Part shown: positions 19,186 to 48,755 of the stretch, piece after piece
How the letters are laid out: each line of letters starts with the position of its first letter
Numbering within the stretch: the first letter of the stretch is position 1
IMG/VR virus record: IMGVR_UViG_3300046694_000202
Span: 19,430 to 83,429 of that record
DNA length: 64,000 bases
DNA from: a virus
Strand: one strand, 5' to 3'
The notes under the pieces: model-generated
Database searches by the model: none
Told to the model about the DNA's origin: nothing
Seen by the model: the letters and a program-made list of their open reading frames with translations, nothing else
Program-made: the position numbers and the translations under genes

Positions 19186-19506
19186 ATGAAAGTCATCGCC
19201 ATCACCACCGGCGCGTTCCAGCTGCTCGACTCGCTCACGGGCGACTTGATCTCTGCGTTCCGCCCGTCCGTCGTCGAGAAGACCTCGTTCCTGACCGCGC
19301 GCCACGCGATCGATCAGGTGAAGGTGCTCGCCGAAGTCGCGGACAGCGCAACCGACGACGAATTTGCCAAGCACTGGCACGAGGCCGGCAAAGACATCGA
19401 CCTCGCCGTTCAGTCGTTCACCGCAATCCACAGCCTCGTTGCCGCGGCTGCACCGGAAGCCGACCCGGCCCCGGCGAAGAAGTCGGCGAAGAAAGCCACT
19501 GAATAA
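19186..19506 (+). CDS. Hypothetical head-associated protein
   Basis: MKVIAITTG..., 106 aa, position after capsid. Confidence 0.7.
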   Translation: MKVIAITTGAFQLLDSLTGDLISAFRPSVVEKTSFLTARHAIDQVKVLAEVADSATDDEFAKHWHEAGKDIDLAVQSFTAIHSLVAAAAPEADPAPAKKSAKKATE

Positions 19507-34907: not shown

Positions 34908-37900
34908 ATGACCGACGCAGTAATTCCCTTCCGTGGGGCGGGCGGTGGCCAGAAGCAGCCGACCCGCACCGACGACAACCTCTTCTCTCGCGACGTAGTC
35001 GAGATCGTCTTTGCCCTCGGCGAAGGCCCGATCCGCGGCCCGGTCGACGGTATGAAGTCGATCTACGTGGGCGGCACGCCCGCGATGTCGCAGGACGGCT
35101 CCACGAATTTCGACAGCTTCAACGTCGGTATCATGCGCGGCCACGCGGGCGATCCGCCGGTCAACTATCGGCTCGGTGGCGAAACCTCGAACACGTCGGT
35201 CGGCGTTCGACTCTTCCAGAACACGTGGGTCTCGCGCACGACCGATGACTCGCTGCGCAACAAGGTTGACCAGCTCCAGGCGCGGATTCTCTTCAACACG
35301 CTGTACAAGTCCAACGACGATGGCACGTTCAACAACACCGCGTCGTTCGAACTCCAGTATCGCCAGTCGACCAACCCGAACTGGTCAGCGGTCAACGGTG
35401 GCACGATCAACGTCACAGGCAAGACCACGGCTGGCTATGTGGTCGACTATGTGTGGGACGTGCCGCGCGTGAATGACACGTGGGTCATCCGCGTGAAAAA
35501 GAACAACCCGGATTCGAGCAACACCGACTTCTGTGACTTTAGCTGGGAGAGCTTTCAGGAAGTCACGAAGGGCAACCGCACGTACGACCGCGTGGCCCTC
35601 ATGCACATCGTCGCGCTCGCGACGAGCCAGTTCTCGTCGGTGCCCGACATCGGCATCGATCTGGACGGTCTCGAGATTTTGGTCCCGACGAACTACAACC
35701 CCGACGCGCACGCAACCGCTGGCACGTGGGATGGCTCCTTCAAGCAGGCGTGGACGAACAATCCGGCGTGGATCCTGTACGACCTCATCATGAACACGAG
35801 CTACGGGCTGCGGAAATATTACCCGTGGCTCACGTGCAACCGCTTCGACTTCTACGACGCGGCAGCATGGTGCGACGCGCCTGTCCCGAACGGTGTGGGT
35901 GGCTCGCAGCCGCGCTACACGTTCAGCATGGTCGTCAAGGACCAGCAGTCGGGCCTCGACATGCTCCAATACGTGGCGGGTTCCTTCGGCGCGTGCATCT
36001 TCGATGACGCGACGGGAACGGTGCATCTGCGCGTGGACAAGTGGGAAGAGCCGTCTATGCTCTTCACCCCAGAGAACGTGACCCCGGAAGGCTTCGCCTA
36101 CACGTTCTCGGACATGAGCACTCGATACAACGACATCGAGGTCAAGTTCGTGAACCCGGACCTGGACTGGCAGCAGGACATCCGGCCCGCGCGCAATCAG
36201 GATCACATCAATCTCAACGGCAGCATCCCACTCTCCTTTGACGCCATCGGCTGCACGAACGAGCACGAAGCACTGCGCCGCGCCTACTATCGCCTCGTCA
36301 CGGCCACGACGGAAGTCGCGACGGTGCAGTTCACGACCACGCGCCTCGGCGTGCTGCTCGACCCCTTCAAGCCGATCTACGTCGCCGACCCGGTGACGGG
36401 CTGGGCCGAGAGCGGCCGGATCAAGTCGATCATCAACGGCAAGATCAACCTGCGCGACCCGATCTACTTCACGAGCAACCAGAACTACACGCTGAAGCTG
36501 CAGACCACCACGGGCATCTCGACGTTCACTGTGAACCCCGGCATGATCGGCTCGGTGTATGCGCTCAACATCGTGTCTGGCATCGTGCCGGCGAACGTGC
36601 CTGATCGCTCGGTGTTCTCGCTGGAGGACACAGGTGGCTTCGGTCTGTCGAAGCCGTTCCGTGTGATCTCGGTGGAGCCGGCCGACAACAGCCCGAACGC
36701 ATACTCGGTCACCGCTGTTGAGATGAACATCAACAAGCAGTGGGCCGCAGACAACTGCATCCCGATCGGCTCGGTCCCGTACTCGTTCAAGAACCCGCTG
36801 ATTCCGCCGCCGCCGAGCAACCTCGTCTGCGAGTCGGGCACGGACATGCTGCTGCTCGGGCAAGACGGCTCGATCATGGCGCGGATCTTCGCCCACTGGG
36901 ATCCGCCCGGTAGCGCGCTGGTCGACCGCTACATCATCCGCTGGAAGGAAAGCCTCCAGAACACGTGGTTCGAGACGAACTCCACGGGCGAGAGCGTCAT
37001 CCTCGCACCGTGCAAGACCGGCACGACCTACGACATCGTGATCGAGGCGGTGAGCGCGTTCGGCTATCGCAGCTCGCAGCTGCAGCTCTGGAACTATAAG
37101 TGCGTCGGCAAGGACCAGCCGCCGAGCAACGTGAAGAACTTCCGCTTCACGCGCCGCGCGCTCGACATCCTGCTGACGTGGGATGCGATCCCTGACTTGG
37201 ACCGCTTCGGCTACGAGCTGCGCCTTGGCTCCACGTGGGACACCGCGAAGGTGCTCGTGACCGACTACGCGGCCACGCAGTTCGCCTGGACGACGGACAC
37301 GGGCGGCAGCTACAACTTCCTGATCCGCGCGAAGGACACGTCGGGCAACCTGTCGCTGCAAGCGACGATCTGCTCGGCGCTGCTCACCGGCCCGTCGCCG
37401 GTTGGCGGCGTCATCGCGATCCAGTCGGGCAACCGCGTGGACTTGCGCTGGGATCCGAACCCCGAGGACAACATCCTCGACTACGAGATCCGCGAAGGCT
37501 CGACGTGGGCCACCGGCATCTTCTTGGCGAAGGTCAAGTCGACGAGCTACAGCGTGACCGCTGGTTCGTCTGGCACGCGCCTCTTCTGGCTCAAGGCCAT
37601 CGCCTCACCGGGGATCTACTCCGACAAGGCGACGTTCGTCACGACCGACATCGCGAAGTCCGACAACACGAACATCATCTACACCACAGACGAAGTGGTG
37701 AACCAGTTCGCCGGCACGAAGTACAACATGGTCACCTACGGCCCCGCGCAGCTGCGGATGGACGACGGCAAGGCCAAGTCGGAATACATGTTCTCGGTCG
37801 CGCTCGCGGACGTGTTCAAGGCACAGAACTCGCTGTTCATCGGCCTGGACGCGATCGTCGACGACAAGACGACCTGGGCGCAATCGACCTATCCTTGGAA

Positions 37901-38492
37901 AGACCCGCAAGCGAACAAGGGCTGGACGACCCCTGGCGACGTGGCGTCGATCAAGTACTCGATCCAGATCTCGATGTCGACGGGCAACCCGACCGGCGTG
38001 CTGTACCAGTGGCGCATGGACAACACGCTGACTTACGCGGGCGTTGGCGAAGATGGCTCGGTCACCGAAAGCCAGACGGTCACGTACAAACCGAGCAAGT
38101 ACGGCGCCGGACTCTACTGTCAAGTCGCCCCGCTGCAACCGCTGCCGACGAAGGTCACGTTCAGCACCAACGTGCCGAACATCTTCAGCACCACGTTCTG
38201 GATCCTGCCGGATGACCTGACCGACAAGGTGTTCATGACGGTGGTCGGCCGTGACGGGAAGTTCATCAAGCTCGGCTACACCGCCGCCACCCTGTCGCTG
38301 TATGCGATCGACAACGATGGCACGAAAGTCTCGATGCCGATCGGTCTCGCAGTGGGCGAGCGCTTCCTCGTCGGTCTGTCGCAAGACACGAACGATCGCC
38401 GGATCTACTTCGCGAAGGAAAGCGGCGCGTGGTATCGCGCGTCGATCGCCAAGGGTGGAATCGGCGCTGGCGTCCAAGTCAAACTCTACTGA
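34908..38492 (+). CDS. Central tail fibre/tip attachment protein (gpJ-like)
   Basis: GEGPIRG, WDGSFKQAWTNNPAWILYD, FN3-like repeats; 1194 aa. Confidence 0.92.
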   Translation: MTDAVIPFRGAGGGQKQPTRTDDNLFSRDVVEIVFALGEGPIRGPVDGMKSIYVGGTPAMSQDGSTNFDSFNVGIMRGHAGDPPVNYRLGGETSNTSVGVRLFQNTWVSRTTDDSLRNKVDQLQARILFNTLYKSNDDGTFNNTASFELQYRQSTNPNWSAVNGGTINVTGKTTAGYVVDYVWDVPRVNDTWVIRVKKNNPDSSNTDFCDFSWESFQEVTKGNRTYDRVALMHIVALATSQFSSVPDIGIDLDGLEILVPTNYNPDAHATAGTWDGSFKQAWTNNPAWILYDLIMNTSYGLRKYYPWLTCNRFDFYDAAAWCDAPVPNGVGGSQPRYTFSMVVKDQQSGLDMLQYVAGSFGACIFDDATGTVHLRVDKWEEPSMLFTPENVTPEGFAYTFSDMSTRYNDIEVKFVNPDLDWQQDIRPARNQDHINLNGSIPLSFDAIGCTNEHEALRRAYYRLVTATTEVATVQFTTTRLGVLLDPFKPIYVADPVTGWAESGRIKSIINGKINLRDPIYFTSNQNYTLKLQTTTGISTFTVNPGMIGSVYALNIVSGIVPANVPDRSVFSLEDTGGFGLSKPFRVISVEPADNSPNAYSVTAVEMNINKQWAADNCIPIGSVPYSFKNPLIPPPPSNLVCESGTDMLLLGQDGSIMARIFAHWDPPGSALVDRYIIRWKESLQNTWFETNSTGESVILAPCKTGTTYDIVIEAVSAFGYRSSQLQLWNYKCVGKDQPPSNVKNFRFTRRALDILLTWDAIPDLDRFGYELRLGSTWDTAKVLVTDYAATQFAWTTDTGGSYNFLIRAKDTSGNLSLQATICSALLTGPSPVGGVIAIQSGNRVDLRWDPNPEDNILDYEIREGSTWATGIFLAKVKSTSYSVTAGSSGTRLFWLKAIASPGIYSDKATFVTTDIAKSDNTNIIYTTDEVVNQFAGTKYNMVTYGPAQLRMDDGKAKSEYMFSVALADVFKAQNSLFIGLDAIVDDKTTWAQSTYPWKDPQANKGWTTPGDVASIKYSIQISMSTGNPTGVLYQWRMDNTLTYAGVGEDGSVTESQTVTYKPSKYGAGLYCQVAPLQPLPTKVTFSTNVPNIFSTTFWILPDDLTDKVFMTVVGRDGKFIKLGYTAATLSLYAIDNDGTKVSMPIGLAVGERFLVGLSQDTNDRRIYFAKESGAWYRASIAKGGIGAGVQVKLY

Positions 38493-38494
38493 TC

Positions 38495-38962
38495 ATGCCG
38501 CATACCATCTCCGACATCACCTTCAAGTCGACCGTGCTCGACGACGACAGCTTCGTGAAGAAGGTCAACTACGACGCCCCGGAGGGGTTCTCCCCCTTCC
38601 AGAACTTCTTCGCGGGCGACTACACGTACAAGAACGCGATCTTCCGGCTCGGGATGGAGTCGGAAGCAGGCGACCGCGGCATCATCAACAAGCTGCAGCT
38701 GGTGGTCGACGTGCCCGACATCTTCGACCGTGGCCTCACGATCGTGAACACGGCCGGCATCATCCGCGTGTTCTTCAACCGCCCTTTTCACATCCCGCCC
38801 ACGATGGTCGTGGCGGTGGAAAGCGCGAGCGACGCCTGCGTGGCGCGCGTGGTTTCCGGAGCGCTCGGGGTCACAAAGACCTACTTCGACTGCTATCTCG
38901 AACGCACGAGCGACAAAGCGAAGATCACCGGAGCGTTGACGTGGGCCGCGCACGCCTACTAA
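38495..38962 (+). CDS. Tail-tip accessory protein
   Basis: 155 aa, VDVPDIFDRG...F..PP pattern typical of J-associated domains. Confidence 0.65.
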   Translation: MPHTISDITFKSTVLDDDSFVKKVNYDAPEGFSPFQNFFAGDYTYKNAIFRLGMESEAGDRGIINKLQLVVDVPDIFDRGLTIVNTAGIIRVFFNRPFHIPPTMVVAVESASDACVARVVSGALGVTKTYFDCYLERTSDKAKITGALTWAAHAY

Positions 38963-39022: not shown

Positions 39023-40507
39023 ATGCAGAATTACACCCAGATTCCGGACAGCCAGCGGATCTCCGATTCGCTGCTGCCGCTCCTGAATAACGACCAGACC
39101 GGGATCTCGCGCAACGCCGGGGACAACTACCCGACCATCGGTCTCGTCGTGGGGATGCCCTACTACAGCACGAGCCAGAACAAGCTGTTCCGCCTGTCGA
39201 GCCTGTCACCGCTCACGTGGGTGGTCGAGATCGACTACAACCGGCCGTACGCGTATCAGGATAGCGTCGATGCTGCAAACGCAAACGCCAACGGGCGCGT
39301 GTCGCGGGCCGGCGACATCATGTCGGGCTTCCTCACGCTGAGCGGCGACCCGACCGCCGCGCTGCACGCCGCGTCGAAACGGTACGTCGATGCGCAGACC
39401 ACCGTCGCGATCAACAGCGCGAACTCGCGCGTCTCGCGCGGCGGCGACAGCATGTCTGGTTTCCTGACGCTGTACACCGACCCGCAGCAGCCCTACCACG
39501 CCGCGACGAAGAACTACGTCGACGTGTACATCAACAGCTTGGCGGGCAGCAAGCTCGCGAAGAACGGCGACACGCTCGGCGAAGTGTTCAACAACGGCTG
39601 GTATCGCTCAAACGGCGCGGTGGGCTGGTACAACCAGACGTATGGTGGCGGCATCTTCCAGAACCAGGGGGGCTACGTCAGCACCTTTGGCGGCACAGGC
39701 TTCCTGACTCCGTGGCACACGCTCGAAGTGAACACGGGCGGCATCTGGACGGCGCGCTACGGCTGGCTCGAAAACCGGTTCGCGGACAAGAGCGCCGAGG
39801 GCAGCTTCAACTCGTGCGGCACGCTGAACAACTCGACGAACCCGACCGTGGTCCCCGGCTCGTTCTATCTCCAGGCGAGCGGCCGTCAGGTGCAGCTCGT
39901 GCGTACCTTCGGCAACTGCAACTGCAACTGCGCCTGCACGTGCTTCCCCGCAGGCACGCGGATCCTGATGGGCGACAAGAAGACGTGGCGCGCGGTCGAG
40001 ACGCTGCAGGTCGGCGAGATCGTCATGACCCCGACCGGCCCCGAGCCGATCCTTGAGATCGAGACGCCGTACCTTGGCTCGCGCAAGATGTGCATGTTCG
40101 CCGACGGCTCGCTGAAGTGGACCGATGACCACGCGTTCTGGACGCGCCGCGACGGCGTGCAGGGATTCTCGGTGGTCGACAAGGACTCGTTCATGAACGG
40201 CGTCGAGGCGGGTCTCGTGAAGGGCCTGAAGAACCACGACGACCTGCTGGTGATGAACGACCGCCTGGACGAGTTCGCGCACCTTGAGGGCTGGAAGAAG
40301 AAGCGCGTGTTCCGCTACACGCAGCCGGCCGAAACGAAGGTCTATCTGCCGATCGTCGGTGGCTCGCACATGATCATCGCTGAAGGCTTCGTCGTCAGCG
40401 CGGGCATGGACGAAGAGACGTTCGACTACAAATCGCTGGACTGGAAGGGCATGGACATCGCTCACCAGCCAATCAACCGTGAGGCGTTCTTCGATGCTCG
40501 TTCATAA
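39023..40507 (+). CDS. Tail fibre protein with CxCxCxCxC motif and C-terminal Hint domain
   Basis: GD.MSGFLTL..DP....HAA.K.YVD fibre repeats; GWYRSNG..GWYNQTYGGG domain; NCNCNCACT|CFPAGTRI (Hint block A), TDDH (block B), VY...GSH..IAEGFVVSA (blocks F/G). Confidence 0.85.
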   Translation: MQNYTQIPDSQRISDSLLPLLNNDQTGISRNAGDNYPTIGLVVGMPYYSTSQNKLFRLSSLSPLTWVVEIDYNRPYAYQDSVDAANANANGRVSRAGDIMSGFLTLSGDPTAALHAASKRYVDAQTTVAINSANSRVSRGGDSMSGFLTLYTDPQQPYHAATKNYVDVYINSLAGSKLAKNGDTLGEVFNNGWYRSNGAVGWYNQTYGGGIFQNQGGYVSTFGGTGFLTPWHTLEVNTGGIWTARYGWLENRFADKSAEGSFNSCGTLNNSTNPTVVPGSFYLQASGRQVQLVRTFGNCNCNCACTCFPAGTRILMGDKKTWRAVETLQVGEIVMTPTGPEPILEIETPYLGSRKMCMFADGSLKWTDDHAFWTRRDGVQGFSVVDKDSFMNGVEAGLVKGLKNHDDLLVMNDRLDEFAHLEGWKKKRVFRYTQPAETKVYLPIVGGSHMIIAEGFVVSAGMDEETFDYKSLDWKGMDIAHQPINREAFFDARS

Positions 40508-41201
40508 AAGCCTGATCCCCACGGATCTCACCGAAGAGGAAGCGCAGCAGACCGTTGACATCGTCAACGTTCTGCCGGTCGGCAACGGCTTCACGATGCA
40601 GTGCGCGTCGCTGAGCCTCTACTGGCAGTTCAATCTCGACCTCGTCAAGTACGGCAACGACGTGATGTACCTGTGTCGTACCCGTACCAACCAGTGGGTC
40701 GTGATGTGGGCCACGGATCTGCACGAGTCGAAGGACAGCTTTTCCTCGGCTATGCTGCGCAAGAACGTGGATGAGTTCAAACCAGTGGTGATGATCGGCA
40801 TCAACGCGGACAAGACCGACTACACCGCCCTCTTCTTCTGCAACTCGCGCGAACCTAACAACCCGAATCCCCAGGTTGATGACGCCGCCGAGAGTGGTGA
40901 CATGACGATGAAGCGGTTGATGCCATCGATCGAGCCGTTGTTGCAACGTCATTGGGCCAAGCACAAGCTGCTCAAGGACACGAAAACGAACGACTCATTG
41001 GCCGCTCTGGAGGCCCAAGTGGACCTGCTCACGAGCTGGCTGCTGATGCTCCTGCCCCTGCAGGCCGACAAGCTCCAAAGACTCCTTGACGTTGGCGTGC
41101 TGACGTTGAAAGATAGTGACGTAGCCCTGGATGACGTGGTCGCATTTAAAAGCGCACTCCGTGAAAGGCAGGCGCTTTACCTCGCGACTATCGGCAAATG
41201 A
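40494..41201 (+). CDS. Hypothetical protein coupled to fibre and radical SAM genes
   Basis: 235 aa; overlaps the fibre stop and has an ATGA overlap with the rSAM gene; C-terminal coiled coil SLAALEAQVDLL. Confidence 0.8.
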   Translation: MLVHKSLIPTDLTEEEAQQTVDIVNVLPVGNGFTMQCASLSLYWQFNLDLVKYGNDVMYLCRTRTNQWVVMWATDLHESKDSFSSAMLRKNVDEFKPVVMIGINADKTDYTALFFCNSREPNNPNPQVDDAAESGDMTMKRLMPSIEPLLQRHWAKHKLLKDTKTNDSLAALEAQVDLLTSWLLMLLPLQADKLQRLLDVGVLTLKDSDVALDDVVAFKSALRERQALYLATIGK

Positions 41202-42559
41202 CAACCTTCGTTCTCAAGACGCTCGACGCTAACAACGTCGAGCGTCGGTTTTTCTACAACAACATGCGCAGCACGCTGGTCGAGGCACAGACCGGCCGCT
41301 CGGTGATTCCGACTCGAGCCGCAGACACCCCGCAAAGCCCCGCCCAGCAAGACTTCCGCAAATCGAAAACGATCCGGACGCTGAAGATCCAGCTCGGTCT
41401 CTCGTGTAATTACAGCTGCGATTACTGCTCGCAGCGCTTCGTGCCGCACGACGAGCCGACTGGCCCCTACTCCGTCGACCACTTCATCTCGCGCTTGAGC
41501 TGGAACGCCTCGCTCGCCGACGATGCCACGATCGAGTTCTGGGGTGGCGAGCCGCTGGTCTACTGGAAGACGCTGGTCCCGCTGGTCGAGCAGCTGCGCA
41601 TCCGCTACCCCGCGCTCACGTTCCGCATGATCACGAACGGCTCGCTGCTGGACCCGATGAAGGCGAGCTGGCTGATCACGAACGGCTTCCACATCGGCAT
41701 CAGCCACGACGGTCCTGGCCAGCACGTGCGCGGCCCCGATCCGCTCGATGATCCGGAGAAGCGCGAGGCGATCCTCATGCTGTACCGGCGCCTGCGTCCG
41801 CTCGGCCGTATCAGTTTCAACGCGATGCTGCACTCGCAAAATACGTCGCGCGCGGCGATCCAGCAGTTCTTCGTGAAGCTCACGGGCGACGAGGAAGTGC
41901 CGGTCGGTGAAGGCATGTTCGTCGATGCCTACGATGAAGGTGGCCGGGGCATGTCTTTCCTTGACGCCGCGGATCACGTCGAATATCGTCGCAAGGCGTT
42001 CACCGAGCTGAAGTCTGGGCTGGCCCTCAACTTCGGATCGGTGACCGAAAAGATTCACGACTTTGCAGAGTCAGTCGCCACGGGTCGGCCGGCGTCTACC
42101 GTAGGGCAGAAGTGCGGTTCCGATCGCGCGGACACCCTCACGGTGACACTGACAGGCGACGTTCTCACTTGCCAAAACGTCTCGGCTGTTTCCGTTGCCC
42201 CGAACGGGAAGAGCCACCGCGCTGGCAATTGGGACGAAATGGATCAGGTGCGGGTCGCCTCCTCGCGCCACTGGTCGACTCGTGAGCACTGTTCGAGCTG
42301 CCCGGTCGTGCAATTGTGCAAGGGCAGCTGCATGTTCCTCGAAGGCGATCTCTGGAATGTCACGTGCGATACGGCCTACAGCGATAACGTCGTGTTCCTC
42401 GCGACCGCCCTTCTGGAGCTGACCGGCTGCACCCTGCAACGCATCGAGCCGATGACTGGCTCGTTGCCTGAGCACCGCCAGGACGTTTTCACGCCACTGG
42501 CGAAAAAGAGCGGGACCACCACCCCGCGCAAAATCATACGGATCAACACGGAAAAGTAA
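41198..42559 (+). CDS. Radical SAM enzyme with SPASM domain
   Basis: CNYSCDYC (CxxxCxxC), FWGGEPL, ITNG, ISHDG; SPASM cysteines C...GDVLTC and CSSCPVVQLCKGSC...C. Confidence 0.93.
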   Translation: MTTFVLKTLDANNVERRFFYNNMRSTLVEAQTGRSVIPTRAADTPQSPAQQDFRKSKTIRTLKIQLGLSCNYSCDYCSQRFVPHDEPTGPYSVDHFISRLSWNASLADDATIEFWGGEPLVYWKTLVPLVEQLRIRYPALTFRMITNGSLLDPMKASWLITNGFHIGISHDGPGQHVRGPDPLDDPEKREAILMLYRRLRPLGRISFNAMLHSQNTSRAAIQQFFVKLTGDEEVPVGEGMFVDAYDEGGRGMSFLDAADHVEYRRKAFTELKSGLALNFGSVTEKIHDFAESVATGRPASTVGQKCGSDRADTLTVTLTGDVLTCQNVSAVSVAPNGKSHRAGNWDEMDQVRVASSRHWSTREHCSSCPVVQLCKGSCMFLEGDLWNVTCDTAYSDNVVFLATALLELTGCTLQRIEPMTGSLPEHRQDVFTPLAKKSGTTTPRKIIRINTEK

Positions 42560-42561
42560 TC

Positions 42562-42837
42562 ATGGATCAGCAACCGCAACAGCAAGACCCGACGCCCCTC
42601 ATCCGCGCTCTGCAAGGCCAGCGCAACGAAGCGCTCGACCACATGGCCGACGCACGTGCCGCACTCGAATTCACGCAAGCACAGCTGCGCGGCGCGACCG
42701 AAGCGCTCGCCGTGCAAGAGTCGCTGGTCGACGACCTGCGTATGCAGCTCGACACGACGAAGGCAGCGATGGCCGTTCTGCAAGAACAGCTCGAAGCCGC
42801 GCGCGCACCGCAGGCTGAACTCACACTGGTGGAGTAA
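42562..42837 (+). CDS. Small coiled-coil protein
   Basis: 91 aa, heptad Leu/Ala pattern. Confidence 0.7.
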   Translation: MDQQPQQQDPTPLIRALQGQRNEALDHMADARAALEFTQAQLRGATEALAVQESLVDDLRMQLDTTKAAMAVLQEQLEAARAPQAELTLVE

Positions 42838-43020: not shown

Positions 43021-43046
43021 AAGGACACCTACGGGTGTCCTTTTTC
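43021..43046 (+). terminator. Intrinsic terminator ending the fibre/rSAM unit
   Basis: AAGGACACC-tacg-GGTGTCCTTTTT. Confidence 0.85.
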
Positions 43047-43094: not shown

Positions 43095-43127
43095 TTGGGC
43101 CACTCACCACCACAACGAGTGCCCACG

Positions 43128-43661
43128 ATGTCAATCACATCCGACCAACTTCGGCAGATCTGGAGAAACGCTTCGGCCACGCGCTGCGAGAAGTTTGCTC
43201 CCCTCCTGTCCGATGCGATGGCGCGCTTCGGTATCGATACGAACGAAGAGATCGTCTACTTCCTCGCGCAAGTCTCACACGAGTCTGGCGAAGCCCAATG
43301 GCTGGAAGAGCTGGCATCAGGCAAGGCGTACGAGGGCCGCAAGGATCTCGGCAATACGCAGCCCGGTGACGGTGTTCGTTACAAGGGCCGAGGCCTCATC
43401 CAATGTACGGGCCGGACGAACTATCAGCTGATGGGGATGATGCTCGACCTCGATCTGATCTCGAACCCCGAGCAGCTGTGTGAGCCGAAGAACGCTGTCG
43501 ATAGCGCTGCCGCCTTCTGGTGGAACCACAAGCTCGACAACATCGCGCTCAAGAAAGACTTCGTCGCTGTGACGAAGGTCATCAACGGTGGCACCAACGG
43601 TCTGGCCGACCGGCAGTTGTATCTGTCGCGCGCTCGGGCAGCGATCCCGGAGGCGGCATAA
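43128..43661 (+). CDS. Endolysin, glycoside hydrolase family 19
   Basis: FLAQVSHESG, YKGRGLIQCTGRTNY, INGGTNGLADR. Confidence 0.92.
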   Translation: MSITSDQLRQIWRNASATRCEKFAPLLSDAMARFGIDTNEEIVYFLAQVSHESGEAQWLEELASGKAYEGRKDLGNTQPGDGVRYKGRGLIQCTGRTNYQLMGMMLDLDLISNPEQLCEPKNAVDSAAAFWWNHKLDNIALKKDFVAVTKVINGGTNGLADRQLYLSRARAAIPEAA

Positions 43662-44444: not shown

Positions 44445-47400
44445 ATGGCCAATACCGGTCTTCCGACAAACCCGGATGGGCAGTCCGTAACCACGGTCAT
44501 CGCCCCGGTTCTGTCGACCTCCCCTCACGCAGCGATCAAGATCCTGTATGGCTCGGGTGTACCCGCGACCAGCGTCGGCGCCGATGGCGATTTTTATCGC
44601 AACGTCGATAACGATGACCTCTACGGCCCGAAGATCAGCGGGGCATGGCCCGACGCATTCTCGATCCGTGGCTACAAGGGCGACCAAGGCCCTCCGGGTC
44701 CGGCTGGCTCGCTGAATACCGACGACCAGGACGCGCTCGATACCGCCGCAGCAGCTGCGCAAGCAAGCGCGCAAGCCGCCGCCGCGAGCGCGACTGCCGC
44801 GGCCACCAGCGCTGCTGCCGTCGCGGCAAACAAAGCCGCCGCCGCAGCCAGCGCGCAAGCCGCAGCGAACTCGGAAACGAACTCGAACACGTCGAAGGGT
44901 GCCGCCGCAGCCAGCGCGACCGCGAGCGCCGCGAGCGCGACTCAGGCCGCAGCCAGCAACACGGCTGCGGGCACCGCGCGTGATGCCGCGTCGGCCAGCG
45001 CGACGGCCGCGAACGCTTCGAAGGTAGCAGCAGGCGTCTCGGAAACGAACTCGGCCGCGAGCGCGACCGCCGCGAACACGTCGAAGCTCGCAGCAGGAGT
45101 CTCGGAACAGAACGCCGCGAACGCGGCCACAGCCGCCGCTGGTTATCGCGATCAAGCGCAGACCGCAGCTCAGCAAGCGCTCTCGGGCGCCGCACCGAAC
45201 GCGTCCCCGACGTTCACTGGTATCCCGCGCGCACCGACGCCGGCACCGGGTACGAACTCCACGCAGCTCGCCACGACTGCCTTCGTCGTTGCAGCCGTCG
45301 CCGCAGGCGGCGGTGGTGGTGGCGCAGTGTCGTCCGTCGCCGGCCGCACGGGCGCAGTTGTGCTCACGATCGCCGACATCACGGGCGCCGCACCGCTGGC
45401 CTCCCCCGCTCTCACCGGCACGCCGACTGTTCCCACTGCGGCCACCGCGACGAACACCACGCAGGCAGCGAGCACGGCCTTCGTGAAGGCGCAGGGCTAC
45501 GCAACCCTGGCATCGCCTGCGTTCACCGGCACGCCGACTGTCCCGACCGCGACGGCCGGCACGAACACGGCGCAGGCAGCGAGCACCGCATTCGTCATGG
45601 CCGCGATGGCAGCGGGCGGCGGCAGCGGCGGCAGCACCGACGCAGGTATGCGCTATGTCGAGTCGTTCACCGCTGGTGGCACCGACAACACCGTGCAGCT
45701 GCAGGCCGCGTACGCATGGCTCCAGGCCGCGCCGTACCGCACGCTCGCGTTCCAGCACAACAAGGTGTACACGGTCAGCGCGCAGTGCAATCTGCAAGCA
45801 GCTCACTGGTTCCGCATTGAAGGCAACGGCGCGACCATCAAGGGCGCGGCGGGCATGTCGACCGACTACGGTTGGCTGCTGCTGAACATGACCTCGTGTA
45901 CCGATGGCCTCGTGGTCGATCTGTTCTTGGACGGCAACCGCTCGGCACGCCCGGTCGCAGTCGGCAAGGAAGAAGCGCACAACGTTCAGGTCTGGACCGG
46001 CAACCAGCGCGTCACGTTCGTGCGCGTGCAGTCGGACAACGCCTGCTGCGATGGCTTCTATCTCGGCGCGGACGATCCGACGAACTCGGCGACGTTCCCG
46101 ACCGACATCAGGTTCATCGACTGCCAAGCCAACAACGGCTTCCGCAACAACATGTCGTTGATCAACACCGTTCGGTTCCGCGACTATGCCGGGTTCTACA
46201 ACGGCGCGAATGGCACCGATCCGCAAGACGGGATCGACCTCGAACCGAATGGCACGCAGGCAGACGGCAACCTCGGCAACATCAACCCCGAGTTCCACGG
46301 CACGACGACGAACAACAACAACGGCCTCGGGATCCAGATCTACCTGGACAGCAACACGGGCGCCAAGTTCTACGACATCACGGCGAAGAACAACCCGAGC
46401 GGTGCGTTCGGCTGCGCAGGCGGCGACTTCGAAATCCGCGGCTTCACGGTTGAGGATCACTACTGGGACACCGACCGCGGTGTGATCGACATCGGCCCGA
46501 ACACTGGCAACGTGCTGATCACCAATGTCGTGTCGAAGAACAACAACACCGAAGATCCGACGAACAAGCCGCTCATCTACGTGGACGCGGCTGTGACAGG
46601 CCTCGTTGCGATCGATGGTGTGATGCACAGTGATTCGGACTGCCCGGTCTTGATCGCCGAGGCTGGGGTACAGCTCCAGAACGTCGAGTCGCACAACCAG
46701 AGTCTGGGGTACATCGCCGAGCTGCACGCTGGCACCGATCTGTCGCTCATCAAGAACGTGGTGGGCCGCAACTCGCTTCGAGGGCTGTACGTCAACGCAC
46801 CGGACGTTGTGGTGTCGAACGTGCGCTTGACGAGTCCGCGCGACAACGCCCCGCTGCTGCTGTTTGATACCGGCGCGCTGCGTGCGTCGCTCGACGGCTA
46901 CGACGTGTATCAGGATTCGGCGGTCCCCGCTGGTCAGATCGGTGCGCGCTTCATCAACGCCCCGGCTCGCGTCACGAATGTGATCGGCCGCAGCGGTGGC
47001 ACGGCCTGGACGGCAGCTCAGCTGCTGAGCTACGCGGGCGGCACGACTGGCTCGCTGATCGCCAACATCTCGCCGTCCTCGGGCGGTACCGGCGCCGTGA
47101 CCTCGGTCGCTGGCCGCACGGGTGTCGTGACGCTGGCTGTCGCCGACGTGTCGGGTGCAGCACCGCTGGCCTCCCCCTCCTTCACGGGCACGCCGCTCGT
47201 GCCGACTGCAACCGCTGGCACGAACAACACGCAGGCCGCGAGCACGGCATTCGTGACCGCAGCCATCGCGGCAGCGGGCGGCGGCAGCGGTGGTGGTGCA
47301 GTGTCCTCGGTGGCTGGCCGCACGGGCGCTGTGGTGCTGACGATCGCCGACATCACGGGTGCAGCTCCGCTCGCGTCGCCGGCCTTCACGGGCACGCCTA

Positions 47401-48755
47401 CGGTTCCAACCGCTGGAGTCACGACGAACACCACGCAGGCCGCGAGCACGGCGTTTGTGAAGGCACAGGGCTACGCGACGCTGGCGTCCCCGGCCTTCAC
47501 GGGAACGCCGACCGTTCCCACCGCAACCGCTGGCACGAACACCACGCAGGCAGCGAGCACGGCCTTCGTCACGACGGCAGTGGCGGCAGTGAGCGGCGGC
47601 GGCGGTGCGGCGGCGACGGTGAAGGCGAGCGCCTGGAACAACTTCAAGAAGTCGAACACCCAGAAGCTGTCGGCCATCATCGCGCGCGGCGCGGCGGGCC
47701 GTCTGCGTGGCCGGATCACCATCATCGGTGACTCGTACTCGATGGGCTACGGCGCGGGCGACGGCGACAACATGAACGGCGGGCGCGCGAAGAACTACTC
47801 GACGCAGCTCGCGGCCATGCTGACTGCACGTGGCGTCGCAGCGCGCGCGGACTGGACGGTCGGCACGGGCTTCACCGGCAGCATCGCCGAGCTGAACCTG
47901 TACGACCCGCGCGTGACGTTCACGGGCTGCTCGATCCTCACCGACTACAACGCAATCGGCGGGAACATGATCCAGCTCGGATCGACGACCGACAAGATGA
48001 CGTTCACGCCGGGTGTCACGTTCAACACGATCGAAATCCTGGTCGCCTGCAACAACCAAGCTGGCGTCTCGGGCAACTTCGACGTGCTGCTCAACGGCGG
48101 CACGACGGTGTCCTCGACGCAGACCAGCAACGACATCATGGGCGTCAAGAAGATCACGCTCACGGTGGCAGCTGGCACGACCTCGGTATCGCTGCGCGGC
48201 AAGACGAACAACACGTTCATCGCTGGCATCGGCACGCGCAACTCGGCGGCACCGGGCATCGAGGTCATCTGCGGTGCATCGACGGGTGAGAAGGTCAACA
48301 TCCTGGCTGCAGCGCCGACCACGAGCGGCGACGTGAACACGTGGAATAACCGCGCGTCGTCCACTGCCCTGCTCGACACGAACGCCTTGAACGTGACGAT
48401 CATCAACGGTTGGTACAACGATCGCGCGGGTCTGGGCCGGACGACGGCACAGGTGCAGAGCGATCTGGCCACGCTGATCGGCTTCTACAAGACGTACGGT
48501 GACGTGATCTTCCTCGGCTACGTGCCGCTGATCACCAGCGACATCCCGCAGGTTGACTTCGACACGTACCAGAACGCGGCGTTTGCGACCTGTGTGGCGG
48601 CTGACATCCCCTACATCAACCCGCCTGCGGCGCTCGGCACCAACGCTGTGATGTTGGCGCAGGGCTTCTTCGGCGACAACGGGTTGCACTGCGGATCCAT
48701 CGGCCATGCCGCCGTGGCGCGCTTGATCCTCGGCGCCATCGACTCAGTCATCTAA
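44445..48755 (+). CDS. Tailspike/fibre with beta-helix (pectate-lyase-like) and SGNH hydrolase domains
   Basis: Ala-rich stalk, LASPxFTGTPTVPT repeats, Asn-rich beta-helix (DGFYLG, NGFRNNMS, DGIDLEPN), C-terminal GDS...GWYND...DNGLH. Confidence 0.85.
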   Translation: MANTGLPTNPDGQSVTTVIAPVLSTSPHAAIKILYGSGVPATSVGADGDFYRNVDNDDLYGPKISGAWPDAFSIRGYKGDQGPPGPAGSLNTDDQDALDTAAAAAQASAQAAAASATAAATSAAAVAANKAAAAASAQAAANSETNSNTSKGAAAASATASAASATQAAASNTAAGTARDAASASATAANASKVAAGVSETNSAASATAANTSKLAAGVSEQNAANAATAAAGYRDQAQTAAQQALSGAAPNASPTFTGIPRAPTPAPGTNSTQLATTAFVVAAVAAGGGGGGAVSSVAGRTGAVVLTIADITGAAPLASPALTGTPTVPTAATATNTTQAASTAFVKAQGYATLASPAFTGTPTVPTATAGTNTAQAASTAFVMAAMAAGGGSGGSTDAGMRYVESFTAGGTDNTVQLQAAYAWLQAAPYRTLAFQHNKVYTVSAQCNLQAAHWFRIEGNGATIKGAAGMSTDYGWLLLNMTSCTDGLVVDLFLDGNRSARPVAVGKEEAHNVQVWTGNQRVTFVRVQSDNACCDGFYLGADDPTNSATFPTDIRFIDCQANNGFRNNMSLINTVRFRDYAGFYNGANGTDPQDGIDLEPNGTQADGNLGNINPEFHGTTTNNNNGLGIQIYLDSNTGAKFYDITAKNNPSGAFGCAGGDFEIRGFTVEDHYWDTDRGVIDIGPNTGNVLITNVVSKNNNTEDPTNKPLIYVDAAVTGLVAIDGVMHSDSDCPVLIAEAGVQLQNVESHNQSLGYIAELHAGTDLSLIKNVVGRNSLRGLYVNAPDVVVSNVRLTSPRDNAPLLLFDTGALRASLDGYDVYQDSAVPAGQIGARFINAPARVTNVIGRSGGTAWTAAQLLSYAGGTTGSLIANISPSSGGTGAVTSVAGRTGVVTLAVADVSGAAPLASPSFTGTPLVPTATAGTNNTQAASTAFVTAAIAAAGGGSGGGAVSSVAGRTGAVVLTIADITGAAPLASPAFTGTPTVPTAGVTTNTTQAASTAFVKAQGYATLASPAFTGTPTVPTATAGTNTTQAASTAFVTTAVAAVSGGGGAAATVKASAWNNFKKSNTQKLSAIIARGAAGRLRGRITIIGDSYSMGYGAGDGDNMNGGRAKNYSTQLAAMLTARGVAARADWTVGTGFTGSIAELNLYDPRVTFTGCSILTDYNAIGGNMIQLGSTTDKMTFTPGVTFNTIEILVACNNQAGVSGNFDVLLNGGTTVSSTQTSNDIMGVKKITLTVAAGTTSVSLRGKTNNTFIAGIGTRNSAAPGIEVICGASTGEKVNILAAAPTTSGDVNTWNNRASSTALLDTNALNVTIINGWYNDRAGLGRTTAQVQSDLATLIGFYKTYGDVIFLGYVPLITSDIPQVDFDTYQNAAFATCVAADIPYINPPAALGTNAVMLAQGFFGDNGLHCGSIGHAAVARLILGAIDSVI

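Follow-up and report, generated by a model that had tools for sequence, protein, structure and literature searches.

A radical SAM/SPASM enzyme gene paired with a Hint-capped asparagine-cysteine ladder in a tail fibre gene of a JWF-like phage: a candidate fibre-tip maturation module

The DNA analyzed here (the window) is a stretch of 64,000 nucleotides (nt) from the virus record IMGVR_UViG_3300046694_000202 of IMG/VR (positions 19,430 to 83,429 of that record), and the region of interest within it (39023-42559 in window coordinates, which are used throughout) belongs to the tail module of a relative of Achromobacter phage JWF. A fraction of 0.96 of the sequence words sampled recurs in one rhizosphere metagenome run, probably the sample of origin, and no RNA run was among those containing them. 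Four genes follow one another there head to tail on the plus strand: the gene for a fibre precursor of 494 amino acids (aa) (39023..40507, stop codon TAA at 40505-40507), made up of an attachment/shaft region, a distal domain with a WTARYGWLENRF motif, a ladder of alternating Asn and Cys residues, and a Hint domain; an accessory open reading frame (ORF) of 235 aa (40494..41201), whose ATG start at 40494 is set by homologues with an equivalent Met; the gene for a radical SAM/SPASM enzyme of 453 aa (41198..42559), recognized by Pfam, NCBIfam, and PHROG matches; and, as the last gene of the unit, an ORF of 91 aa (42562..42837) that begins 2 nt past the stop codon of the enzyme gene. The gene overlaps described in a first-pass annotation of this DNA are indeed present, the start of the 235-aa ORF overlapping the end of the fibre gene by 14 nt, and its stop sharing the letters ATGA (41198-41201) with the start of the enzyme gene. 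The same annotation had the unit end at a hairpin at 43021, which stands, and consist of three genes, which does not, as the 91-aa ORF sits between the enzyme gene and the hairpin, making a unit of four. The terminator-like hairpin (43021..43042, plus strand), with a 9-pair stem containing 5 GC pairs and a T-rich tail, precedes an endolysin gene (43095-43661), and JWF has an annotated terminator at the equivalent place. Phages JWF and 2-1 share this gene order at 66-68% DNA identity, and there the genes are annotated as encoding a Hint family protein, a hypothetical protein, and a radical SAM protein.

The ladder (39914..39943, plus strand; aac tgc aac tgc aac tgc gcc tgc acg tgc) consists of residues N298 C299 N300 C301 N302 C303 A304 C305 T306 C307 and is followed by FPAGTRILM. 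Both the sequence and the predicted fold bear out the earlier description of five alternating Cys, the last of which, C307, is at the same time the first residue of the Hint domain; the ladder would be the substrate of the radical SAM enzyme, and T306 the C-terminus of the mature fibre. No other (C-x)4-C run occurs in the window's 554 six-frame ORFs of 60 aa or more, and the ladder holds three overlapping NxxC motifs (N298..C301, N300..C303, and N302..C305). The fibre is 46-47% identical overall to JWF gp28 and to its homologue in phage 2-1, the ladder counterparts being NCNCDCNCNCSC in the former (six alternating Cys) and NCNCDCNCSC in the latter (five), and C301, C303, C305, and C307 are invariant across 19 Hint-type proteins. 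In 88 distinct ladder contexts collected from the loci found with the enzyme as a seed (described below), the longest run is 3-7 X-Cys units, with the partner residue X being Asn in 67.7%, Asp in 12.9%, and Ala in 11.2% of cases, and every other residue accounting for 2.5% or less. Asn and Asp thus make up 81% of ladder partners, against a background, in the rest of the same proteins, of 7.1% Asn, 6.7% Asp, and 1.0% Cys. Many of the carriers have extra N-C pairs 5' of the ladder, and the proteins span 103 to 691 aa. As to the nature of these proteins, the window fibre gene comes after the gene for the central tail fibre protein J (gpJ) and has PHROG tail-fibre matches, albeit weak (3.4e-5 and 2.3e-4), collagen-like repeats are present in its relatives, and the ladder protein of Ralstonia phage RSP15 is annotated as a side tail fibre. 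The control frames described below, together with the ladder's being unique among the ORFs of the window, led us to reject a chance origin. Two further observations concern the ladder sequence itself. The first three units (39914-39931) form an exact (AACTGC)3 tandem repeat, and ladder length varies among close relatives (five Cys in 2-1, six in JWF), a pattern to be expected from replication slippage. One group of Hint-capped proteins, small in size at 300-340 aa (locus L078, 4997-5992, and proteins P0156-P0161), consists almost wholly of Asn-Cys-rich segments, with many N-C pairs ahead of the final ladder, and in L078 the radical SAM gene directly follows.

The Hint domain extends from C307 to about residue 479 and is followed by a short tail (39941..40507, plus strand). 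In an AlphaFold2 (AF2) model of fibre residues 185-494, built on 19 relatives, residues 305-479 have a pLDDT (predicted value of the local distance difference test) of 83-96, and a Foldseek search against the PDB returns 38 matches at E<=1e-3, those listed being inteins, bacterial intein-like (BIL) domains, or hedgehog autoprocessing domains. First in rank is BIL2 of Tetrahymena (6y75_B; E 1.8e-7, target TM 0.77), and hedgehog 1at0 is matched at E 1.1e-4. The Pfam Hint models remain under threshold for the window domain (Hom_end_hint 15.0 vs 32.1, Hint_2 14.9 vs 28.4, Vint 12.4 vs 27), and some of its homologues have precomputed matches to PF05203 or PF01079. Alignment points to C307 and T367-x-x-H370 (40121-40132, plus strand) as the catalytic candidates; 19 proteins show no variation at C307, F308, G331, or H370, and the third position ahead of the His is always T or S. 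The domain thus possesses the features that define the Hint superfamily, the fold, the nucleophile at residue 1 (C307), and the (T/S)xxH block. It was also considered as an intein, and this reading was rejected, as the domain ends the protein, with no downstream extein and no conserved terminal Asn; cleavage is therefore expected only N-terminally, between T306 and C307. Hedgehog domains and some BIL domains typically share this arrangement, a place at the C-terminus combined with cleavage on the N-terminal side alone. What we find, then, is a Hint-fold domain with intact catalytic residues that starts at the last rung of a conserved Cys ladder.

The enzyme gene encodes the radical SAM CxxxCxxC motif as C70-x3-C74-x2-C77 (41405-41428) and seven SPASM Cys (C306, C325, C365, C368, C374, C378, and C390) within 42113-42367. 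The seven-Cys SPASM motif reads C-x(9-15)-G-x4-C ... C-x2-C-x5-C-x3-C ... C, and G320-x4-C325 fits it. The full SPASM Cys set claimed at first sight is thus real: the 143 distinct family members all keep the ten Cys of the three cluster motifs, and these ten are the sole conserved Cys, C411, for example, being present in only 84 of the 143. The protein scores 30.9 bits with Pfam Radical_SAM (PF04055; gathering score 29.5) and 32.5 bits with the SPASM model TIGR04085 (cut-off 27), and it belongs to phrog_1802. The top named NCBIfam models are PapB, QhpD, the GG-samocin maturase, the anaerobic sulfatase-maturating enzyme (anSME), and DynA, at 43-56 bits vs cut-offs of 300-453, and the best two, PapB (55.6 bits) and QhpD (45.9 bits), describe thioether formers. 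The nearest solved structures by profile are 8vpo, which is the closest chain by score, CteB (5wgg), and anSME (4k37), that is, maturases of peptides made ribosomally and then modified post-translationally (RiPPs) and anSME. In the first SPASM stretch C306 alone faces the anSME sequence CGMNGTCTC, which has three Cys, and CteB likewise has one. As anSME ligates its auxiliary cluster I by four Cys, while CteB leaves one iron open for the substrate Cys, the single Cys at this place suggests, if this cluster ligation holds, that the phage enzyme is built like the thioether formers. A reading of the enzyme as an anSME, the name given to the JWF gene in GenBank KP202971, was rejected on score and Cys pattern. 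The family is a large one: of 8000 candidates scored, 2690 proteins match at E<=1e-10, and the viral stretches with such a gene number at least 593. Additional enzyme genes are seen in some of the loci: a second, more distant radical SAM gene adjoins the main one in L050 (3322-4329; Pfam Radical_SAM 5e-12), and L114, L136, and L137 contain second matches to the family profile (E 1e-22 to 1e-26). In the viral contigs L094, L132, and L141, proteins ending ...QCNCNCNCDCSDDSGGG are paired with a far more distant relative of the enzyme (profile E ~1e-29), and the pairing system may for this reason reach past the family sampled here.

The distribution of the two elements was surveyed starting from three different seeds. 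For the enzyme seed, the best 80 of at least 593 viral stretches were taken, of which the 64 with at least 3.5 kb of upstream DNA are informative, and a ladder was called where a frame of 90 aa or more, upstream and on the same strand, has a ladder, alone or with Hint, at its end. By this rule, 58 of the 64 informative loci have a ladder-ended frame upstream, and in the same loci none of the 670 downstream frames and none of the 1630 frames on the opposite strand qualify. Among 80 loci from bacterial genomes, mostly of Burkholderiales (Limnohabitans, Polynucleobacter, Burkholderia paludis MSh1), plus a number of Alphaproteobacteria and various metagenome bins, a ladder frame is present in 51 of the 54 that have enough upstream DNA (controls: 1 of 784 downstream and 1 of 1573 opposite-strand frames; 2 of 4657 for all controls together). 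The second seed was the DNA of the ladder, as a degenerate 24-base pattern that matched at least 120 viral stretches, in 71 of which the ladder falls no more than 25 residues from the end of a frame of 90 aa or longer; 6 of the first 24 contigs were already in the enzyme-seeded set. Among the matches listed, a same-strand downstream enzyme is found for 33 of the 34 ladder-ended frames with at least 4 kb of downstream DNA and for 2 of 2 Hint forms, and for only 3 of 22 occurrences of the pattern in short frames (low-complexity DNA, giant-virus bins). The third seed, a conserved W-T-A-N-Y-G-W-L block of the distal fibre domain, gave 80 loci, and here the enzyme is downstream in 68 of 69 informative loci (67 ladder-ended and 1 Hint), the remainder being 6 ladder loci short of downstream DNA, 3 cut frames, and 2 loci outside the ladder rule, one of which has a three-Cys ladder. 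No ladder-less homologue of the distal domain occurs among these 80 loci, so this seed provides no contrast group.

The first-pass annotation had named a lack of co-occurrence between radical SAM homologues and Cys-rich fibre motifs as the outcome that would speak against its proposal, and had suggested a look at the gene neighbourhoods for such motifs with or without Hint; the outcome is a near-total pairing from all three seeds, with ladders near-universal and both forms found. The spacing and the content of the interval between the two genes vary, from direct adjacency, with the enzyme gene 4-8 nt past the ladder gene in some loci, to 5.3 kb, and the genes in between belong to at least three unrelated families. 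The enzyme is also found in three phages in culture, JWF, 2-1, and RSP15. JWF is a siphovirus (PMC9959647). RSP15 (L283, NC_030948) is a member of Ackermannviridae, with an enzyme at 48% identity and an annotated side tail fibre whose terminal ladder is very short (...NTNCQCGN), the genes for fibre and enzyme being separated by two hypothetical genes (features at L283 2395-3267 and 4965-6305). Ladder and enzyme are thus near-obligate genomic partners across the phage loci sampled.

What distinguishes the window from most of these loci is the Hint domain. The ladder forms the end of the protein, with 0-12 residues after it, in 78 of the 88 contexts, and is followed by Hint in the other 10 (all enzyme-seeded), and for all three seeds the commonest residues after the ladder are none, C, CC, CGC, or CGCC. 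One instructive example is the Hint-bearing fibre of L046, whose ladder runs into CFPLDT, the start of Hint, where three Hint-less proteins with fibres 71-78% identical to it stop at the ladder end. In a FastTree phylogeny of 157 enzyme sequences, including 15 Hint-linked rows, at least four changes of Hint state are needed, at least three of them forced by well-supported branches. Terminal ladders, the tree, and the L046 set together suggest that a free C-terminal ladder is the normal state and that Hint is an optional cap, repeatedly gained or lost. The earlier proposal that Hint cleavage would expose the ladder as a new C-terminus gains strong comparative support from the 78 terminal ladders and from the L046 set, and this comparison is the strongest support available for such predicted exposure. 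With co-occurrence near total, the ladder is therefore the likely substrate of the enzyme and Hint a likely removable cap.

We propose that these elements form a fibre-tip maturation module of a JWF-like tailed phage, in which Hint would cleave and the radical SAM enzyme would act on the ladder, and we give this reading a probability of about 0.6. The fibre would be made as a 494-aa precursor, in which Hint would catalyze an N-to-S acyl shift at the T306-C307 bond, the resulting thioester being resolved most simply by water, with release of a 188-aa Hint fragment that would leave a 306-aa fibre ending ...NCNCNCACT. The co-transcribed radical SAM/SPASM enzyme would work on the ladder Cys: a Cys thiolate would bind the open iron of auxiliary cluster I, and the enzyme would abstract a hydrogen from an Asn/Asp side-chain carbon, or from the carbon beside the free C-terminal carboxylate, upon which thioether rings would close. 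The product, formed in the cytoplasm, would be reduction-proof thioether links of the ranthionine type, and the phage would gain a tip whose cross-links, unlike disulfides, can form in the reducing cytoplasm and which withstands proteases and reduction outside. We infer the cleavage, the role of the ladder as substrate, and the type of bond from sequence features and from the pairing. As to the bond, Cys-to-Asn/Asp thioether links appear most likely, given the 81% of Asn/Asp partners and the conservation of only seven SPASM Cys.

A number of characterized systems offer precedents for parts of this scheme. NxxcB links the Cys sulfur to the beta carbon of Asn in an NxxC motif and tolerates Ala, Gln, and Asp there (PMC9389541). 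The window ladder holds NxxC motifs, with Asn, Asp, and Ala as ladder partners; NxxcA, however, is a short leader-bearing peptide from a quorum-sensing-linked streptococcal cluster, and the likeness noted here is one of substrate motif. PapB makes Cys-Asp/Glu thioethers with acceptors from i+1 to i+7, and it also links Cys to the carbon beside a free C-terminal carboxylate, peptides without the free carboxylate not being processed (PMC12373016); if this latter requirement is shared by the phage enzyme, the need for a ladder that is terminal or unmasked by Hint would follow. PapB is a SPASM thioether former and the best NCBIfam match of the phage enzyme, but its substrate PapA is leader-dependent and contains CxxxD repeats, and the phage enzyme scores 55.6 bits against a PapB cut-off of 340. 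QhpD accepts both Asp and Glu as thioether acceptors, and CrpC, of the TIGR04463 family, modifies CrpA, a large Cys-rich repeat protein, such enzymes being described as working on large proteins (PMC13692751). Like the proposed phage system, QhpD with QhpC and CrpC with CrpA have SPASM enzymes that put Cys-Asp/Glu or ranthionine links into proteins rather than small peptides; unlike it, they employ a recognition element and an N-terminal leader, while the phage site is C-terminal and no such element is detected. Neither of the two is viral, and the available text of the CrpC paper (PMC13692751) uses neither 'phage' nor 'viral'.

By curated models, the phage family falls outside the PapB, QhpD, CrpC, and anSME families. 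Like the enzyme of the window, as proposed here, anSME is a SPASM enzyme acting on the Cys of a folded protein, and it provides the sole full-length alignment among solved structures, but it has three Cys in the first SPASM stretch vs one in the phage family, and its substrate motif is a different one. On the side of autoprocessing, BIL and hedgehog Hint domains share the fold, the Cys1, and the (T/S)xxH block with the window domain, which differs in that its Cys1 doubles as the last Cys rung of the ladder and in scoring below the Pfam thresholds. Tail spikes and fibres may also carry self-cleaving C-terminal intramolecular chaperone domains of the Peptidase_S74 type. The analogy with these is functional only, a C-terminal fibre domain removing itself after its job, as fold and chemistry are unrelated, and the fibre has no Pfam match to that family. 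Relative to the known SPASM maturation of Cys-rich substrates, new elements would be a virion fibre as the substrate and a self-removing Hint cap. A literature search of article full texts returned no radical SAM enzyme coupled to a phage fibre and no Hint-capped fibre, in agreement with the earlier statement that no characterized example was known.

A number of points weigh against the proposed maturation module. The support for every member of it consists of comparative sequence data and predicted structure; the identification as a virion fibre draws on gene position, weak PHROG matches, and the annotation of neighbours, and the distal domain has a pLDDT of <50 in the monomer AF2 model, so that the model gives no confident geometry for the ladder. 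The pairing has exceptions: no ladder is found within 6 kb in 6 of the 64 viral and in 3 of the 54 genome loci (though among the six viral ones L061 has a looser ladder and L064 a ladder cut at the locus edge), and each of the other two seeds has one ladder locus without a nearby enzyme (L194 for the ladder DNA, L364 for the fibre domain). The counts also overstate the number of independent events, as many of the loci are near-copies from similar freshwater or soil samples. In the case of the enzyme, PapB (NF047865) has its best-matching stretch in residues 59-174 only, and the scores for QhpD (TIGR03906, 45.9 vs 453), anSME (TIGR03942, 43.7 vs 349.45), and TIGR04463 (32.1 vs 525) are likewise far under their cut-offs, making the type of reaction unreadable from homology. 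A RiPP recognition element was not detected; the stretch ahead of the core is only about 55 residues long, and profile alignments to the PDB start at residues 48-71.

The low scores leave room for the enzyme to modify the ladder by some other chemistry, be it formylglycine formation, thioethers at the alpha carbon (sactionine), or another radical reaction, the Asn/Asp residues then being structural or serving in recognition. The alignment to anSME is alone in spanning core and SPASM together (residues 71-380, E 2.4e-10), KP202971 does name the JWF gene an anaerobic sulfatase-maturating enzyme, and the reactions of near neighbours are varied, as 8vpo is reportedly cited in a paper on cyclopropylglycine synthases. 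However, the anSME model scores 43.7 bits against a cut-off of 349, the ladder does not match the sulfatase motif C/S-x-P/A-x-R, the first SPASM stretch has one Cys and not the three of anSME, and the 81% share of Asn/Asp among the partners is what a Cys-to-Asn/Asp link predicts; overall, we regard a different chemistry as rather unlikely. One might also see in the ladder a metal, iron-sulfur, or disulfide site of the fibre tip, with the radical SAM enzyme acting on some other substrate or helping in cofactor loading. The tip of the long fibre of T4, with its His-x-His iron sites, offers a comparison, and alternating Cys with Asn/Asp on a beta strand would put the thiols on one face, where three chains could form sites. 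CrpA, itself a Cys-rich radical SAM substrate, is suspected of binding metals (PMC13692751). Simple metal binding, though, does not need a near-obligate SPASM partner, as found from all three seeds, nor does it explain on its own the strict terminal position and the Hint cap, and the characterized enzymes among the matches (PapB, QhpD, anSME, CcpM, DynA, and others) act on peptides or proteins, which makes such a site an improbable account of the locus.

A further alternative concerns the fate of the Hint thioester, which could be transferred to a nucleophile, such as a ladder thiol, giving a thiolactone, an amine of a virion protein, or a small molecule, in the manner of hedgehog cholesterol transfer or of the Tetrahymena loci that combine BIL and ubiquitin-like domains. 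The structural matches to Tetrahymena BIL2 (6y75, E 1.8e-7) and to hedgehog (1at0, E 1.1e-4) are in line with it, as are the four thiols within eight residues of the thioester; yet the common end state needs no transfer, as 78 of the 88 contexts are Hint-less and have a plain carboxylate, and no acceptor is evident in the locus, and we consider it quite improbable. Finally, the pairing could reflect the shared ancestry of a single tail module, with enzyme and ladder not acting on each other. Close relatives are numerous among the loci, and no separation of distal domain and ladder was seen in the 80 fibre-domain loci, but the pair persists while ladder proteins range from 103 to 691 aa and the intervening families and the gap vary, and its carriers include both the siphovirus JWF and the Ackermannviridae phage RSP15, leaving this explanation with very little probability. 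As for the maturation module preferred here, its most far-reaching form is that a dedicated radical SAM enzyme staples C-terminal Asn/Asp-Cys ladders in hundreds of tailed phages, possibly between chains, making a reduction-proof tip, with Hint as a self-removing cap that gives a free C-terminus, and that this is the first RiPP-type radical modification of a structural protein of a virus; we offer this form only tentatively.

The genes accompanying the pair are variable. Accessory families were clustered in 83 loci, and one gene family is found directly upstream of the enzyme in 49 of them; four of the five members tested match Pfam 2OG-FeII_Oxy_5 (PF13759), two of them over the gathering score. 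These putative 2-oxoglutarate (2OG)-Fe(II) oxygenases (L011 5397-6008, L012 4876-5433, L019 5160-5834, L030 5278-5988, and L046 5264-5890) are what lies just upstream of the radical SAM gene in most Hint-less loci, while the window is without such a gene, and their presence suggests a second modification in those phages, perhaps hydroxylation. Another family, of proteins of about 270-310 aa without Pfam matches, comes after the ladder protein in 45 loci. The family of the 235-aa ORF is present in 13 of the 83 loci, both Hint and Hint-less, and never together with the ~280-aa family. By hhalign it is unrelated to the two commoner accessory families, the three profiles being mutually unrelated. 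The 235-aa ORF has 19 relatives among 5.8 billion proteins, and iterated hidden Markov model searches over the loci did not extend its family past 16 ORFs. Its AF2 model (pLDDT 84.8) has an N-terminal beta domain and a C-terminal helical bundle, with no Foldseek match at E<=1e-3 and no usable match in the protein atlas; the best VIA-align Z of 5.7 is a generic helical match, in a range the tool calls common, as is the Z of 5.2 of the beta domain over 95 residues to SPP1 gp22. The first-pass annotation had suggested a chaperone or a recognition factor, a role to which the small number of loci with this family and the lack of a recognizable fold lend no support. As the genes between the two vary, the constant core consists of ladder and enzyme, and the version seen in the window, with Hint and the 235-aa ORF and with no oxygenase, is one variant of the ladder/enzyme module. 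The 91-aa ORF has weak homologues at the same position in L003-L006, L009, and L010 and no family match above noise in Pfam, PHROG, or NCBIfam.

One more feature lies within the enzyme gene, a hairpin followed by a U-run in codons 8-17 (41218..41246, plus strand; -20.8 kcal/mol, z -4.6), which is also picked up by a terminator scan. It is kept in 11 of 12 JWF-like loci though the encoded residues differ, with compensatory double changes in 3 of 11 pairs, and it may be an attenuator that keeps the enzyme below the level of the fibre, or it may slow translation into the enzyme gene. Upstream of the fibre gene are the gene for gpJ (34908-38492, plus strand; phrog_31, E 7e-162) and, between the two, a 177-aa ORF (38429..38962, plus strand) with no match in Pfam or PHROG, to which no role is assigned. 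In phages JWF and 2-1 and in loci L003-L010, a homologue of this ORF (153-219 aa) is likewise encoded ahead of the fibre, and its domain forms part of 450-aa proteins whose genes lie immediately 5' of those for the ladder fibres of many further loci (E 1e-25 to 1e-27). Possible roles are those of a conserved adaptor or of a partner in fibre attachment. Downstream of the unit, the endolysin is of GH19 type and is accompanied by holins, and past these lysis genes is a second fibre-like ORF, of 1436 aa (44445-48755, plus strand), with repeated ...SPAFTGTPTVPTA... units, no Cys ladder, and no Pfam match at E<=1e-3.

Receptor-binding fibres decide which bacteria a phage attacks, and their maturation is usually ascribed to folding, to chaperones, and to occasional self-cleavage only. 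The question raised here is directly testable, as three cultured phages, JWF, 2-1, and RSP15, have the enzyme. Enzymology would gain a large untouched SPASM family with an evident candidate substrate linked to it genetically. In practical terms, a laddered fibre produced by itself in a heterologous host may lack the modification, and structural work and designs of engineered phages could be misled by this. If the proposed maturation is correct, a covalent modification of the fibre tip installed by an enzyme would represent a new layer in phage assembly and stability, and RiPP-type radical chemistry would reach from small peptides to the proteins of virions.

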